Notes under the pieces: model-generated | What the model was told of the DNA's origin: nothing | What the model saw: the letters and a program-made list of their open reading frames with translations, nothing else | Databases searched by the model: none | Shown: positions 35,157-41,415 of the stretch, piece by piece | How the letters are laid out: every line of letters begins with the position of its first letter | Position numbering within the stretch: the first letter of the stretch is position 1 | Source of the DNA: Sulfuricella sp. | Lineage (GTDB): Bacteria; Pseudomonadota; Gammaproteobacteria; Burkholderiales; Sulfuricellaceae | Direction of reading: 5' to 3' | Length of the DNA: 64,000 nt | Assembly: GCF_035531155.1 (NCBI RefSeq) | Contig: NZ_DATKTK010000050.1 | Location: 14,294 to 78,293, forward strand | Translations under genes and position numbers: made by a program

Positions 35157-36098
35157 ATGAGCGATGATATCTTTGGCGAAGAAGAGGAATTCCCGGGTGT
35201 AGGGAAGGCTGCTCTTGAAGAGGAGAAGGCCGATGTGGCGCCGGAGCTGAAAGAGAATCCAAGCGAGCATCAATCCGATCCCATGCTGATCTACTTCAAT
35301 GAAATAGGTCAGAATGAGCTGCTGAGCGCTGCCGAGGAGTACACCCTGGCATGCCGGGTGAAGCTGGGAGATTTCGATGCGCGCCAGCGGATGATCGAGT
35401 GCAATCTCCGGTTGGTCGTGAATATCGCCAAGCACTACGTGAGTCGTGGCATGGCATTGCTGGACCTGATCGAGGAAGGCAACCTGGGGCTCATCCATGC
35501 CCTGGAAAAATTCGATCCGGAGCGGGGGTTCCGCTTTTCCACCTACGCCACCTGGTGGATACGGCAGAATATCGAACGCGCCATCATGAACCAGTCGCGC
35601 ACTATCCGCATTCCGGTGCATGTGATCCGGGAGATGAACATCTGCCTGCAGGCGTTTCGTCACCTTGAGGCCCACAAGAACCACGAACCCAGCGTGGAAG
35701 AGGTGGCGCACTTGCTGGGCAAGCCAGTGGCCGATGTGCGCTACGTGCTGAACCTGAATGAGCGCATAGCATCCCTGGATACGCCGCTGGATATCGACCC
35801 TAGCCTCTCCCTGTGTGATGCGCTTCCTGACGAGAACACCCTCTCGCCAGAACTGCAACTGCAGCACACCGAGCTTGAGGCGCTTGTGCGTCAGTGGCTG
35901 GAGGAACTGGGAGACAAACAGCGCTGCGTGATAGAGCGGCGCTTTGGCTTGAACGGGCACGCCATTCACACCCTGGAGGAAGTAGCTGACACCCTGGATA
36001 TCACCCGTGAGCGGGTGCGCCAGATTCAGGTGGAGGCCTTGAAACTTTTGCGCCGCAGCTTGAAGCGCAAGGGGATATCGCGAGACGATACCCTCTGA
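35157..36098 (+). CDS. rpoS: RNA polymerase sigma factor RpoS
   Basis: [28 protein letters not shown]; surE-pcm-nlpD synteny. Confidence 0.93.
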
Positions 36099-36163
36099 GA
36101 AATCAAGGATCCCGGGAAAATCAGTCGGTACGAATTTTGCGGATTACTGTAGAGATAGCAAGT

Positions 36164-37240
36164 CTAAACACGGAAGGCGTGCGTGCCCAGACTTGTCAAG
36201 TAGGTCATAACGCGCGCAGCCATGTCATGCAGTGGCACGACTTCATCGACGCCGCCAGTGAGGATGGCTTCCTTGGGCATGCCGAACACCACGCAACTGG
36301 CTTCATCCTGGGCGAAATTGAAGGCGCCTGCCTGCTTCATCTCCAGCATCCCCTTGGCGCCATCCTTGCCCATGCCGGTAAGAATCACGCCGATTGCATT
36401 CTTACCCACATGATTCGCAGCGGAACGGAACAGGACGTCCACCGAGGGACGGTGACGATTGACGGGCGGTCCATCGGATAGCTCGCAGATGTAATTGGCG
36501 CCGCTGCGCTTTACCATCAAGTGGGAATGTCCCGGCGCGATAAAGGCATGACCTGGCAGGATGCGGTCGCCATTTTCGGCTTCTTTCACCGAAATCTTGC
36601 ACAGCGTGTCGAGGCGCTGGGCGAACGACTTGGTGAAAGTTTCCGGCATGTGCTGAGTGATGGCGATGCCGGGGCAGTCCGACGGCAATTTGATGAGGAA
36701 GTCCTTGATCGCCTCGGTTCCACCCGTGGAGGCGCCAACGATAATCAATTTTTCTGTCGAGGCGATATGATTGGACAGGGATGGCAGTATGGCATCGGCC
36801 GTCAGACTCTTCTGGACTGTCATGGCCGGAGCCTTTCTCAGGCGCGCCTTGGCGGCGGCACGGATCTTGTCGGCGATTTCATCGCTGTATTCCTGCAAGC
36901 TGCGGCTGATATCGAGTTTGGGTTTGGAAACGAAATCGACCGCGCCCAGTTCCAGCGCGCGGCAGGTGATGTCGGAGCCTTTCTCGGTGAGGGTAGTAAT
37001 CATCACCACCGGCATGGGCCTGAGGCGCATCAGTTTTTCCAGGAAATCCAGGCTATCCATGCGCGGCATTTCGACATCGAGGGTGATCACGTCGGGGTTC
37101 AGCGTCTGGATCATTTTTCTGGCGACGAGGGGATCGGGCGCTGAACCGACCACCTTTAAATCTTTGTGGCTTTCGATAATCTCCTTGAGCGCACTGCAGA
37201 TGAGTGCAGAGTCAGCGACAATGAGAACTTTGATGGTCAT
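36164..37240 (-). CDS. cheB: Chemotaxis methylesterase CheB
   Basis: Receiver domain plus methylesterase motifs [24 protein letters not shown]. Confidence 0.93.
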
Positions 37241-37302
37241 ATAAACTTCCATGTTTGAGGTGAGGGGCTAGGGGCGAGAGGCTGGCAGCCCCTCTCCTCC
37301 GC

Positions 37303-37397
37303 TCAAAATAGTTCCACGTCGCGCTTTCCATCTTGGCGTAATCCAGACGAGACTCATAATCCTTCTCGCGTTCAACGCTGGTGTTGTTGTGAACGCC
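37303..37397 (-). pseudogene. cheD: CheD C-terminal remnant
   Basis: Reads GVHNNTSVEREKDYESRLDYAKMES then, after a frameshift, DVELF-stop, matching the betaproteobacterial CheD tail; lies between cheR and cheB. Confidence 0.7.
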
Positions 37398-37411
37398 TTT
37401 CTGTCCCCCGG

Positions 37412-38281
37412 TTATCTATGGGCAGCGAGAGCGAGGTGCTTGGCCTGGGGCGATAGTTCATAGACGGTCTTGCCCAGCGATTTGAACAAATCGGCGGCAT
37501 GATAAAAGCTTTCCGAGTGGCCGGCAAACAGCAAGCCGTCCTTGTGCAGCAGCGGGACGAACTTCTTCAGTACATCGTATTGAGTTTTTTTGTCGAAATA
37601 GATCATGACATTGCGGCAGAAAATCGCATCGAACGGCCCGCGCATCGGCCAGGATTCATCGAGCAGGTTGATTTGCCTGAAGGTGATCATGTCGCGCAAT
37701 TCTTGGCGCACCAGGGCCTGTCCTTCATGCTGTCCGGTGCCTTTGAGAAAAAACTTTTTCACCATTTCCTCCGGCATCTTTTCCAGCCGCTCCAGCGGAT
37801 AGACGCCTTCCTGGGCCTGTTGCAATACCATGGTGTCCAGATCCGTCGCCAGGATGTGCACCGGCGGGGTGAATGTGCCGAACAGATCCACCATGGTCAT
37901 GGCCATGGAATAGGGCTCTTCACCGGTAGAGGCGGCAGAGCACCAGAGCGAGATCGGCTGCTTCATGCCGCGCTTTTTTACATGCTCGGCCAGGAGCGGG
38001 AAATGATGCTGCTCGCGGAAAAAGGAGGTGAGGTTGGTAGTGAGGCAGTTGGTGAAAGCCTCCATTTCCACATCGTCGCCACGCTCAAGGCGGGCCAGGT
38101 ATTCGTTAAAGCTAGGTATTCGTGTCGTACGCAAACGTCGCGCCAGGCGGCTGTAGACCATGTCCTGCTTGGCGGGCGACAGGGAAATGCCAGCCCGATC
38201 ATAGATCAGCTTGCGGATACGTTCGAAATCTTGCGCAGTGAAATGAAATTCGCGTGCATCGTTAATTGGGGATTCTGCCAT
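37412..38281 (-). CDS. cheR: Chemotaxis methyltransferase CheR
   Basis: TTNLTSFFRE, WCSAASTGEEPYS, FCRNVMIYF. Confidence 0.95.
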   Translation of the reverse strand: MAESPINDAREFHFTAQDFERIRKLIYDRAGISLSPAKQDMVYSRLARRLRTTRIPSFNEYLARLERGDDVEMEAFTNCLTTNLTSFFREQHHFPLLAEHVKKRGMKQPISLWCSAASTGEEPYSMAMTMVDLFGTFTPPVHILATDLDTMVLQQAQEGVYPLERLEKMPEEMVKKFFLKGTGQHEGQALVRQELRDMITFRQINLLDESWPMRGPFDAIFCRNVMIYFDKKTQYDVLKKFVPLLHKDGLLFAGHSESFYHAADLFKSLGKTVYELSPQAKHLALAAHR

Positions 38282-38350
38282 AACTAATTTTTTGAGTGCT
38301 GAGTCGCAAGTTTAGAGGCTGGTAGTCAGTGAACATGAAATGCTGTCATT

Positions 38351-38392
38351 GTAGGTCGGGTTTTAACCCGACATGTCGGGCTGAAGCCCGAT
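38351..38392. repeat. GTAG-type REP doublet, truncated at its right end
   Basis: GTAGGTCGGG-TTTTAA-CCCGAC followed by GTCGGG-CTGAAG-CCCGAT; the expected closing CTAC is interrupted after CT. Confidence 0.75.
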
Positions 38393-38840
38393 CTTGTATC
38401 TTGTTTCCCGTGGTGGTTGGCTTCCACCCTACGAGGCGGGGAGAGCTTGAGTCAACCTGAAGGGTCGAACCTTGATTTGTAGATAGGGACCTCCGCCTCT
38501 CTTTCCGCCGGACACCACACTGGTCGGCAGCCAAGGACCTGGGAACCAGAGACCCTGTATGGACAAGGTACGCGGCAGTGAAAGACACCCTGAGCTGCAA
38601 GGAGGACTCCCATGGTTTATCTGGGTATCGACGTTTCCAAGGCCAACCTGGATTGTACCCTGCTTGACCCGGTAGCGGACAAGCATAAGACCGAAGTGGT
38701 CAGCAACGACAAAGCCGGGTTGGAAGCCCTGTCGGCGTGGCTTACCAAGCAAGGCGTTTCCCTGACCGAAGCGCATGGCGTGATGGAAGCCACTGGGGTT
38801 TACCACGAGCAGGCGGCCGGCGGTTACGCGGTTTCCCTAC
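38393..38840 (+). mobile_element. IS110-family element remnant (left end plus 5' part of recombinase)
   Basis: Structured non-coding leader and the RuvC-like N-terminus GIDVSK...MEATGVYHE; remainder of element absent. Confidence 0.85.
38412..38580 (+). ncRNA. Putative IS110 bridge RNA
   Basis: 5' hairpin GGTGG/CCACC; loop closed by GAGGCGG/CCGCCTC containing CCT..GGGT..AACC..GTAGAT; loop closed by CACTG/CAGTG containing GTAT..ACAAGG. Layout parallels the IS621 bridge RNA as I recall it. Confidence 0.65.
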
Positions 38841-38884
38841 TGCCAAAAATATATTTTGTGATTGTGACCTTATCGGTTTCATGA
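38612..38884 (+). pseudogene. Truncated IS110 DEDD recombinase
   Basis: AAGGAGG SD; about 70 aa of RuvC-like domain, then unrelated AT-rich sequence. Confidence 0.85.
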
Positions 38885-38920
38885 TTACATAGCGTGAGCC
38901 AATCGATCAAGGGAAACCGT

Positions 38921-38972
38921 ACTGAGTGCTGCGTGTCGGGTAAAGCCGGCTCAGAACTTCGTACTCAGGACT
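38921..38972. repeat. Heptamer-type imperfect inverted repeat (CTGAGTGCT / ACTCAG)
   Basis: Same motif as 2634-2691 and 38293-38304. Confidence 0.5.
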
Positions 38973-38977
38973 GAACA

Positions 38978-39646
38978 ATGCTGAACTGGAATCTAATCGA
39001 TACCGTTTTCCTCGACATGGATGGCACCTTGCTCGACCTGCATTTCGACAACCATTTCTGGCTCGAGCATGTGCCGCTGCGCTACGCCGAGAAGCATGGC
39101 CTGAGCTATGCGGAGGCGCAGGATGCATTGGCGCCGCGATACCACAAGGTGGTGGGTACCATGGAATGGTATTGCGTGGATTACTGGACGCGCGAACTGG
39201 GGCTGGACATCGCCCGACTCAAGGAGGAAGTGGAGCATCTCATCGCCGTGCATCCGCATGTCACCGATTTTCTTGCAGCGCTGCACGGCAGCCGCCGGCG
39301 TACTGTGCTGGTGACCAACGCCCACCATAAAAGCCTGGCATTGAAGATGCGCAAAACCCGTTTGGATGGCTATTTCGACGCGGTGATTTGTGCCCACGAC
39401 ATCGGCGTGCCCAAGGAACATCCCGAGTTCTGGGGCAAGCTCCAATCCGCCGAGCGCTTTGACCCCATCGCCACGCTGCTGGTGGACGACAGCCTGCCGG
39501 TGCTGCGCTCGGCGCGGGATTACGGCATTGCCCATCTGCTTGCGGTGCATCGGCCGGATACGCAACTGCCGGTCAAGGATGTGGCGGAATTCCGGGCGAT
39601 TCGCAGTTTCCGCGATATTCTGCCCTCAGTCCGTAGGCTGGGGTGA
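38978..39646 (+). CDS. yrfG: HAD-family GMP/IMP nucleotidase (YrfG-like)
   Basis: FLDMDGTLLDLHFDNHFW, WYCVDYW, LVTNAH. Confidence 0.88.
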   Translation: MLNWNLIDTVFLDMDGTLLDLHFDNHFWLEHVPLRYAEKHGLSYAEAQDALAPRYHKVVGTMEWYCVDYWTRELGLDIARLKEEVEHLIAVHPHVTDFLAALHGSRRRTVLVTNAHHKSLALKMRKTRLDGYFDAVICAHDIGVPKEHPEFWGKLQSAERFDPIATLLVDDSLPVLRSARDYGIAHLLAVHRPDTQLPVKDVAEFRAIRSFRDILPSVRRLG

Positions 39647-39706
39647 GGAAACCGAACCCCAGCGATTTGACCCCGGCTGGGGTGCGCTAAGCTTACCCCA
39701 GCCTAC
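39633..39706. repeat. GTAG-type REP doublet overlapping the yrfG stop
   Basis: GTAGGCTGGGG...CCCCAGC ... GCTGGGG...CCCCAGCCTAC. Confidence 0.8.
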
Positions 39707-39711
39707 AGGCT

Positions 39712-40083
39712 CTAGCCCAGCAGCAGCACCGCTGCCACTTTCCTGCCCTCGGACGCGAGGATGTTGTAGGTGCGGCAGGCCGCCGGGGTGTCCATCACCT
39801 CTACGCCGATATGCATCCGGATCAGCGCCTCCGTCAGGCGGGGGTGAGGAAAGCGCAGGGTGCTGCCGGTGCCGAGCAGTACGATCTCCGGCATTAATTC
39901 CAGAATGGCCTCGAAATGGGCGGCCTCCAGCGCTGCGAAGCTTTGCGGCGGCCATTTTTCGACGATCCGATCCGGCAGCACGATCAGGCTGGCTTGATAG
40001 TGTTGATGGTTGACCGCGACATAATCGGTGTCGTAGCCGGTGAAAAGGTTTAAGCCGGCAGCGTCGGCCAGGTGGAATTTCAA
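39712..40083 (-). CDS. Mth938-like (DUF498) protein
   Basis: LLGTG, EVMDTPAACRTYNILASEGR; GGAGG upstream of TTG 40083. Confidence 0.88.
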   Translation of the reverse strand: MKFHLADAAGLNLFTGYDTDYVAVNHQHYQASLIVLPDRIVEKWPPQSFAALEAAHFEAILELMPEIVLLGTGSTLRFPHPRLTEALIRMHIGVEVMDTPAACRTYNILASEGRKVAAVLLLG

Positions 40084-40188
40084 GGTGGGCCTCCATTTGC
40101 GGGACAAGGGACGGTCGGGTAAGATTATACCTTTTAAGCGCATTCTGTGGAGCGACTACGTCGCCGGCGCAAAAAGGGGCTCGAAGCC

Positions 40189-41415
40189 ATGCAACCCGTA
40201 CTTAAATCCACCAAGCTCGCCAACGTCTGCTACGACATCCGTGGCCCGGTGATGGCGCGCGCCCGGCAGATGGAGGAGGACGGTCACCGCATCATCAAGC
40301 TCAACATCGGCAATCCGGCGCCGTTCGGTTTCGAAGCACCGGAAGAAATTCTCCAGGACGTGATTCACAATTTGCCCAATGCCTCCGGCTATTCCGATTC
40401 CAAGGGGCTGTTCGCCGCGCGCAAGGCGATCATGCACTACACCCAGGAAAAAAAGATTCGCGATGTGCAGATGGAGGACATCTACATCGGCAACGGCGTG
40501 TCCGAGCTGATCGTGATGGCGATGCAGGCACTGTTGAATACCGACGATGAAGTGCTGGTGCCGACGCCGGACTACCCGTTGTGGACCGCGGCAGTGACCC
40601 TGGCGGGTGGCGTGACGCGCCACTACATCTGCGACGAGCAGGCGGGCTGGCTGCCCGACCTGGACGACATCCGCGGCAAGATCGGCCCGAATACCCGCGC
40701 CATCGTCCTGATCAACCCGAACAACCCGACCGGTGCGCTGTATCCGGTGGAACTGCTGCAGGAGATCGTCGAGATTGCCCGTCAGCACCAACTGATCATC
40801 TACGCCGACGAGATCTACGACAAGGTCTTGTACGATGGCGCGACCCACACTTCGATCGCCTCGCTGGCTGACGATGTGCTGTTCATCACCTTCAACGGGC
40901 TGTCGAAGAACTACCGCGCCGCCGGCTATCGCGCCGGCTGGCTGGTGGTCTCGGGTGAAAAGCGTCATGCCCAGGACTATGTCGAGGGGCTGACCATGCT
41001 CGCCTCGATGCGGCTGTGTTCCAACGTGCCGGCGCAATACGGCATTCAGACCGCACTCGGCGGCTATCAGAGCATCAACGATCTGGTCGCGCCCGGCGGT
41101 CGTCTGGCTAAGCAGCGCGACCTCGCCTGGAAACTGCTGACCGACATCCCCGGTGTGTCCTGCGTCAAGCCGCAGGGGGCGATGTATCTGTTCCCCAGGC
41201 TCGACCCGAAAATGTATCCGATTGCCGACGACCAGGAGTTTATCCTCGAGCTGCTGCTCGAGGAGAAGGTCCTGCTGGTTCAGGGCAGCGGCTTCAACTG
41301 GCCCAATACCGACCATTTCCGGGTGGTGTTTCTGCCCAACGTGGACGACCTCACCGAGGCCATCGGACGCATTGCGCGCTTCCTCGAGCATTACCGCAAG
41401 CGGCATGGCTCCTGA
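40189..41415 (+). CDS. alaA: PLP-dependent aminotransferase AlaA
   Basis: KLANVCYDIRG, NPNNPTG, NGLSKNYR; usual position upstream of hom. Confidence 0.9.
   Translation: MQPVLKSTKLANVCYDIRGPVMARARQMEEDGHRIIKLNIGNPAPFGFEAPEEILQDVIHNLPNASGYSDSKGLFAARKAIMHYTQEKKIRDVQMEDIYIGNGVSELIVMAMQALLNTDDEVLVPTPDYPLWTAAVTLAGGVTRHYICDEQAGWLPDLDDIRGKIGPNTRAIVLINPNNPTGALYPVELLQEIVEIARQHQLIIYADEIYDKVLYDGATHTSIASLADDVLFITFNGLSKNYRAAGYRAGWLVVSGEKRHAQDYVEGLTMLASMRLCSNVPAQYGIQTALGGYQSINDLVAPGGRLAKQRDLAWKLLTDIPGVSCVKPQGAMYLFPRLDPKMYPIADDQEFILELLLEEKVLLVQGSGFNWPNTDHFRVVFLPNVDDLTEAIGRIARFLEHYRKRHGS

Follow-up and report, generated by a model that had tools for sequence, protein, structure and literature searches.

Identity of the locus

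The question raised by this locus is whether a bridge-RNA gene left with only the first codons of its IS110 recombinase can still work as a guide, or whether it is the remains of a dead element. The locus lies in a 64-kb stretch of DNA, analysed as a whole and called here the window, between cheR upstream (37412-38281, minus strand) and a GMP/IMP-nucleotidase (HAD) gene downstream (38978-39646, plus strand); for each of the two genes, the best-matching named homologue belongs to Sulfuricella. A sequence-only reading had described an orphan IS110 left end with a bridge-RNA gene, located at the CT of a CTAC-ended REP, with a recombinase truncated at about 70 codons and with self-consistent guides, and had suggested that an intact IS110 copy might still use this natural guide variant in trans. 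The structural part of this description was borne out, the coordinates of the REP, the element start and the guides being exact (Table 1). The functional part was not, and the locus is very probably a decayed, non-functional relic of an IS621-like element that inserted at the REP CT and was later shortened by a deletion of ~1 kb.

Table 1. Coordinates of the features of the locus, numbered along the window (a slash in a junction marks the boundary between target and element).
Feature	Position	Strand	Description
REP unit 1	38350-38373	+	TGTAGGTCGGGTTTTAACCCGACA; TGTAG + hairpin GTCGGGTT/AACCCGAC
REP unit 2, inverted	38374-38394	+	TGTCGGGCTGAAGCCCGATCT; interrupted after ...GCCCGAT-CT; intact copies end ...CCCGACCTAC
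CT core dinucleotide, left junction (target-left / element)	38393-38394	+	Same CT/TGTATC junction in >50 relatives
Bridge-RNA gene (degenerate)	38393-38592	+	R1 model positions 1-192, full length
Left non-coding end (LE) of IS, 217 nt	38395-38611	+	82% nt identity to L008 over 426 nt
5′ stem-loop GTGGTGG-TTGGCTT-CCACCCT	38410-38430	+	One broken pair; family-invariant loop TTAGCT reads TTGGCT
Target-binding loop (TBL) with outer stem (GAGGCGGGG / CCTCCGCCTC)	38433-38499	+	Inner stem GCTT/AAGC damaged: G-A mismatch, A102G
Left target guide (LTG) AGTCAACCT, AGTCAAC-CT	38450-38458	+	One nt shorter than family norm
Segment deleted in sister lineage (RTG, donor-binding loop, ORF start)	38457-38728	+	~272 nt, between short CTG/CCTG repeats; L088, L091
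Right target guide (RTG) ATTTGTAG, ATTTGT-AG	38475-38482	+	Predicts right flank CT-ACAAAT
Left donor guide (LDG) region TGGTCGGCAGCC	38521-38532	+	Family TGAACGGTAGCC, copy of right-end tail ACGGTAT
Right donor guide (RDG) region	38558-38568	+	ACAAG (38563-38567) complementary to element's first bases CTTGT
Shine-Dalgarno site ahead of recombinase ORF	38599-38605		
Recombinase stub, first 69 codons, DEDD/RuvC-like	38612-38818	+	Includes GIDVSK, MEATGVYHE
GGCGG junction filler, uncertain origin	38819-38823	+	With next T, weak resemblance to right-end tail GACGGT
Native cheR-HAD intergenic DNA	38824-38977	+	Homology to Sulfuricella denitrificans skB26 resumes at 38824 (TTACGCGGTTTCCC...)

The repeat upstream of the element has the features of a REP, that is, a short GC-rich hairpin, GTAG/CTAC ends and many intergenic copies that often form inverted doublets. 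The genome holds 18 copies of GTAGGTCGGG, several of them as inverted doublets ending in CCCGACCTAC. Since the intact doublets of the same family (C8:47515 and C40:64014, ending in ...CCYGACCTAC(A)) end in CTAC, the window doublet must be broken off directly behind the CT of its last CTAC. REPs ending in CTACA fall into at least five families in this genome, the 7 nt before the motif being GGATGAA (51 copies), GAGGGAG (48), ACCCAAC (23), GCGGGCG (16) or ACCCGAC (6), and these REPs offer IS110 elements an abundance of potential targets in a genome without an active IS621-like copy.

By homology, the region 38393-38818 comes from an IS621-like IS110 element, whose left end it preserves with the bridge-RNA gene and 69 recombinase codons. 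Its first bases, CTTGTATCTTGTTT (38393-38406), are the conserved left-end start of full-length relatives. In the ORF at 38612-38884, residues 4-67 align with positions 1-61 of the 155 in the PF01548 profile (E 2e-8), which is the first 40% of the domain only, in which the D of GIDVSK and the E of MEATG are present and the later DD is missing. The match to intact recombinases ends after codon 69 (38818), past which the ORF runs through 21 unrelated codons to a TGA stop (38882-38884). The C-terminal Tnp domain with the catalytic serine (PF02371) is absent at the locus, and this absence, together with the stop of homology at codon 69, identifies a fragment of an IS110-group member rather than a functional member. 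The right end (RE) is also absent at the locus and the right junction is lost. The hexamer GGCGGT (38819-38824) was considered as a surviving RE tail, but compared with GACGGTAT it shows 5/6 identity and needs a 3-nt deletion, and it is retained as no more than a weak possibility.

The cheR-HAD adjacency is kept in S. denitrificans skB26, with a 268-nt spacer that contains neither REP nor IS; the empty-site comparison rests on this one reference, which itself has no REP doublet. The idea that the IS marks a rearrangement (a synteny break), prompted by a signalling operon upstream of the HAD gene in other Sulfuricella genomes (see next paragraph), was dropped because skB26 has the same adjacency. 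Two CheR homologues, P0122 and P0127, lie in other gene contexts (P0122 being paralogous), and neither provided an empty site.

In several Sulfuricella genomes (T08 and groundwater MAGs), a 7-kb signalling operon precedes the HAD gene (L182:1-6929, compared with the window upstream of 38958), encoding a GAF kinase, an RR-HDOD-HD protein, an RR, a small GTPase, a kinase and an RR-MshEN-T2SSE ATPase. The operon is missing from the source genome and from this position in skB26, and the upstream junction of the HAD gene is therefore variable within the genus. Separately, a public contig (L089, ERZ27256810) begins with ACGTGTGCTCTTCCGATCT (L089:1-19), fused to window position ~38826. We take this start to be an Illumina adapter tail, and the fusion is thus an assembly artefact in that contig.

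Structure of the bridge RNA

The left ends of 26 relatives were aligned with the window left out (alignment A1). The family consensus comprises a 5′ stem-loop, a TBL with outer stem, inner stem and small hairpin, and a donor-binding loop (DBL). Its structure has 32 pairs, in which 95.3% of the cells are paired, compared with 37-52% in slid controls, and 23 of the pairs show compensatory changes. A covariance model (R1) built from this 26-relative alignment only matches the 64-kb window once, at 38393-38592, with 123.4 bits (E 2.6e-35), so that the RNA proposed earlier is recovered by a model from which the window had been excluded. With an nhmmer profile of the left end, the window locus was the only match in the 3.46-Mb genome. 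Scanning 36000-41000 against Rfam 15 gave no match at gathering score, the only hit being a chance one to sR53 (E 2.4).

Columns 1-5 and 185-189 of the family alignment are invariant and complementary (CTTGT/ACAAG), and the 5′ donor guide of the family, AACGGTAKCC, copies the conserved right-end tail GACGGTAT-CT. In the window, ACAAG of the RDG pairs with CTTGT; in the LDG, two invariant positions are changed (A143T and T147C), and the RE that it would read is deleted. In the TBL, the outer stem and the hairpin have survived intact, as has the RDG.

Guides and flanks

The roles of the guide positions can be read from the relatives, in which the 9 nt ending in CT at LE offset 58-63 are those of the locus's own left flank. 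The LTG is at least 8/9 identical to its own left flank in 33 of 53 distinct loci, compared with 22 of 2430 mismatched pairs (0.9%), and in Pokkaliibacter (L065-L071), where copies lie within one genome, guide and flank differ together. The 3′ guide of the family (...GTAG-AT) corresponds, as reverse complement, to CT followed by the right flank. It is less specific than the LTG (at least 4/5 in 13 of 33 loci, compared with 14% of controls), but the RTG position covaries with the right flanks in L023, L032, L039, L018 and L013, and does so perfectly in the three loci with a non-AC right flank (L023, TC/GAAG; L032, GC/GCAG; L039, GA/TCAG). Intact relatives sit at sites equal to their own guides and not at unrelated ones. 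Because the positions given earlier for the LTG, the RTG and the donor ACAAG of the window are homologous to these flank-covarying positions, the LTG, RTG and RDG assignments are, as judged by homology, correct.

The guides of the window are nevertheless not self-consistent. The LTG, AGTCAAC-CT, agrees with the actual flank, GCCCGAT-CT, at 2/7 non-core positions, or at 4/9 when the CT core is included, and the earlier statement that guide and flank match partly was, if anything, generous. In addition, the LDG has its two invariant-position changes and no longer has a right end to read. An exact match to the predicted target, GTCAACCTACAA, occurs nowhere in the genome (0 copies). In a sister lineage of the relic (see below) the LTG reads AGCCAAC, and in three relatives (L020, L025 and L027) the guide is (A/G)GCCCAAC-CT and the insertion site a CCCAAC-CT REP end; the genome itself holds 23-27 REPs of the type ...CCCAAC-CTACA. 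Reconstructed from one sister sequence and distant relatives, the ancestral LTG was probably AGCCCAAC-CT, a guide for the CCCAAC-CTACA REPs of the genome. Such a guide would match the actual flank at 5/7 positions and the REP consensus GCCCGAC at 6/7, from which we infer that the insertion was near-cognate. The present LTG would then have arisen by loss of one C (a 1-nt loss) and a C>T change.

Decay of the relic

Bridge RNAs can work in trans if given a promoter (PMC11208160), and the window RNA is recognisable over its full-length architecture, with outer TBL stem, TBL hairpin and RDG unharmed, which is what speaks for a still-functional orphan RNA acting with a recombinase encoded elsewhere. 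The other parts of the RNA are damaged. Five substitutions (TTAGCT>TTGGCT, A102G, A143T, T147C and A193C) fall in the 43 columns at which none of the 26 relatives varies, two of them (A143T and T147C) in the LDG, and 5 of the 32 pairs are broken, 27 being kept, whereas the four closest intact copies have 0 invariant-column changes and 0 broken pairs. The R1 score is 123 bits for the window compared with 190.7 bits for the intact copy L094, which is outside the model, and the MFE z-score is +0.89 (a fold no better than shuffles) compared with -1.68 for L094.

The partners that such an RNA would need were also looked for. No second copy of the element was detected in the assembly (3.46 Mb, 100% complete), either by blastn with a full-length relative or with the nhmmer left-end profile, and the earlier description of an orphan is thus upheld; the assembly is a 71-contig draft in which a multi-copy IS could be unassembled, and no contig-edge fragments were found. 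Two further matches to CTTGTATCTT (C55 and C56) lie inside genes and are due to chance. No cognate recombinase is encoded in the genome assembly. The sole other IS110-family gene, on C30, encodes 313 aa with 29% identity over part of the C-terminal half, and no R1-type RNA accompanies it. This gene (C30:12913-13854; L002:1486-2427) is apparently intact and belongs to a different IS110 subgroup, with both PF01548 and PF02371.

In IS621, the bridge-RNA promoter is assembled across the RE-LE junction (PMC11208160), and in the relatives of the window copy TTGAC-N17-TATCTT is likewise formed only across this junction. In the window, the REP that now precedes TATCTT (38397-38402) provides no -35, a promoter scan of 38250-39000 found no promoter-like site, and, with the RE missing, the locus has neither a donor site nor a -35 half for the junction promoter. 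By analogy with integrated IS621 copies, which give weak bridge-RNA expression (PMC13626964), the relic may still yield some transcript.

The subsequent fate of the relic can be followed in a sister lineage, represented by three Logan contigs from the same study (L088, ERR12814476; L090, ERR12814458; L091, ERR12814474). The contigs contain the same relic with the same 3′ breakpoint, and the lineage has lost, besides the large internal segment listed in Table 1, 7 nt at the element start. Its substitutions amount to 3.8% in the LE compared with 0.1-0.4% in cheR and HAD. Taking together the lack of a cognate recombinase, of a promoter and of the -35-bearing RE, the two changed invariant positions in the LDG, the five broken pairs, the changed invariant loop base, a fold like that of shuffles, the missing target and the deletion of RTG and DBL in the sister lineage, the earlier suggestion of action in trans is very unlikely indeed to be right. 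On these sequence features the relic is non-functional and evolving neutrally. Another mode of bridge-RNA loss is seen in a Methyloprofundus MAG (L080:1833-1920), in which a GIDIS-type ORF begins almost immediately behind the LE start and the 5′ stem-loop, with both guide loops apparently deleted.

Insertion and truncation

In the history that we favour, an IS621-like IS110 element would have inserted by bridge-RNA-guided recombination at the CT core, in the CTAC end of the REP doublet, between the cheR and HAD genes, the host being a Sulfuricella-like bacterium. Later, ~1 kb would have been deleted, comprising the recombinase from codon 70 onwards, the element right end and the last bases of the REP, so that the left end with its bridge-RNA gene and 69 codons was left. 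Homology to the native DNA of skB26 resumes 5 nt after the last IS-homologous base, and with native DNA back at 38824 the deletion must have reached the right terminus of the element within ~6 nt. As to mechanism, this may have been an end-anchored deletion or a partial excision.

An alternative is that the fragment was inserted as such, a partial circle having delivered to the REP a non-autonomous mini-element that consisted of LE + 5′ CDS. Native DNA does resume almost directly after the fragment, fragments of similar length exist elsewhere (L011), and partial circles are on record (10.64898/2026.08.14.744561). This reading is very unlikely, however, given that the right junction has no CT-AC core and the terminal AC of the REP is unrecognisable, that the three known fragments end at different bases, that the fragment is single-copy in the genome and that L010 lacks the LE start.

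Two further Thiobacillus/Sulfuricella-clade copies, L010 (1813-2030) and L011 (3001-3210), are truncated too. These and the relic (window 38800-38825) end within ~12 nt of each other, after codons 67, 69 and 70, with unrelated DNA downstream; in L010, ~130 nt at the beginning of the LE are missing as well. The relic could be a stereotyped product of its own recombinase, partial excision or end-anchored deletion joining codons 67-70 to the right terminus, in which case the IS110 elements of this clade would truncate themselves into modules of 'LE + about 205 nt'. Consistent with this are the distal end of the deletion, within ~6 nt of the right terminus, and the ends of L010 and L011, within ~12 nt of the same codon and with unrelated flanks. 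IS110 partial circles have been reported to reuse the terminal boundary (138- to 300-fold enriched) and to have recurrent internal endpoints, which were read as half-match recognition (10.64898/2026.08.14.744561), and these fit in outline, as does the half-match excision reported elsewhere (10.64898/2026.08.31.748434), although that preprint describes mainly single-strand copy-out, which leaves the donor locus intact.

The junctions themselves argue against a stereotyped product, since a CT core or a recognisable donor/target half-site is found at none of the three (0/3). A recombinase-made junction at a pseudo-core was considered and rejected: the internal CT in GCGGCG-CT-GTGG, the RD-like TGTATC in the codons for GVY and the LD-like GGTGTAT are at none of the three breakpoints, the internal TGTATC lying 8-20 nt upstream of the breaks and the CT in GCGGCG-CT-GTGG not being the junction. 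Moreover, the sample is three, of which L010 and L011 are metagenome-assembled contigs, and the distant look-alikes L042 and L143 turned out to be insertions of other elements. We consider it unlikely, on balance, that the relic is a product of this kind.

Other candidates for the breakpoint were discarded as well. A Chi-like GCTGTGG as a resection stop was rejected because the positions are inconsistent; to our knowledge, no Chi is known for the bacterial group of the window. L041, L044 and L125 resembled truncations, but their ends are contig ends. L042 and L143, taken at first for truncations at the same codons, are interrupted IS621-like recombinase genes, with an IS3-like element in L042 (3195-3460) and a Tn3-family element in L143 (2020-3810; terminal repeat GGGGAGCCCGCAGAATTCGG...), both located a few codons past the conserved MEATGVYHE motif.

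Two further genomes contain solo stubs next to REPs, 66-85 nt long and derived from the same LE family (L006:1499-1580 in the same-genus genome G013; L005:1500-1600, minus strand, in G017). In L006 the last bases of the stub are the CT of its own LTG-coding segment, with AC next (...GCTTGTTTAACGCC-CT/ACGCGGG), and the L005 stub ends inside the target-binding loop (...GGCTCGAC-CT/ACATAA). From their sequences, both stubs look like products of recombination between guide-coding DNA and the right junction, RE-CT/AC. A broader proposal would combine these stubs with the relic. That is, the clade would truncate itself, codons 67-70 to the right end being repeatedly removed by partial excision or right-terminus cleavage to leave 'bridge-RNA + stub' modules, and related events would take guide-coding DNA (left target + CT copy) as a half-site, giving the 66-85-nt LE stubs that end in ...LTG-CT/AC (L006, perhaps L005). 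We regard this proposal, too, as rather improbable.

Significance and comparison with known systems

As a decayed IS110 relic the locus is nothing out of the ordinary, dead IS110 ends at REPs being a class already described (PMC11208160), and the relic itself matters little. It is of modest value in other respects. The IS621-like clade in Nitrosomonadales-type bacteria shows very clean guide/flank covariation and constitutes a natural dataset of reprogrammed bridge RNAs. The sister-lineage contigs and the window form a natural time series of relic decay and give a dated example of how fast an orphan bridge RNA decays, with visible damage and a 272-nt loss at 0.1-0.4% divergence of the neighbouring genes. 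Finally, a deletion anchored at the element end and breakpoints that cluster agree with what has recently been reported on partial excision and half-match recombination (10.64898/2026.08.14.744561, 10.64898/2026.08.31.748434).

The closest intact relative is L094 (metagenome contig Ga0209269_1000010), whose recombinase carries PF01548 and PF02371 and matches IS621 (8wt6) and ISCro4 (9t56) over the full length (E about 1e-55). Further intact copies are found in Thiobacillus/Thiobacillaceae and one Gammaproteobacteria MAG (L007-L009 and L012). The recombinases of these five copies are 327-328 aa long, and the stub is 70-80% identical to them at the amino acid level over its 69 codons; at the nucleotide level, the part of L008 that matches the window begins with the element start and extends into the 5′ CDS (L008 positions 1-426). 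The intact relatives share with the window copy the identical start, CTTGTATCTTGTTT, and the same RNA architecture. Unlike the window copy, they have kept the RE (...TTGAC..GACGGTAT-CT/AC), have zero broken pairs and carry guides identical to their own flanks (GSSCCTC-CT REPs).

With enterobacterial IS621-like copies the stub shares 44-49% amino acid identity over 69 residues; that is, the clade, whose hosts are Nitrosomonadales-type betaproteobacteria, is distinct from IS621 at the sequence level. Its common ground with IS621 of E. coli and with ISCro4 comprises the DEDD N-terminal domain, the CT core and REP (...CT-AC) targets (PMC11208160, PMC11208158). The shared features extend to the RNA (PMC11208160), which is encoded in the LE, is ~180 nt long and has target-binding and donor-binding loops behind a 5′ stem-loop; in the target-binding loop the LTG is in sense with CT, whereas the RTG is antisense and carries AG. 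They extend also to a sigma-70 promoter, whose two halves lie on either side of the RE-LE junction (PMC11208160). In contrast to IS621 and ISCro4, the window copy has no Tnp/serine domain, RE or right junction, and what it has kept is a damaged RNA with a guide mismatched to its flank.
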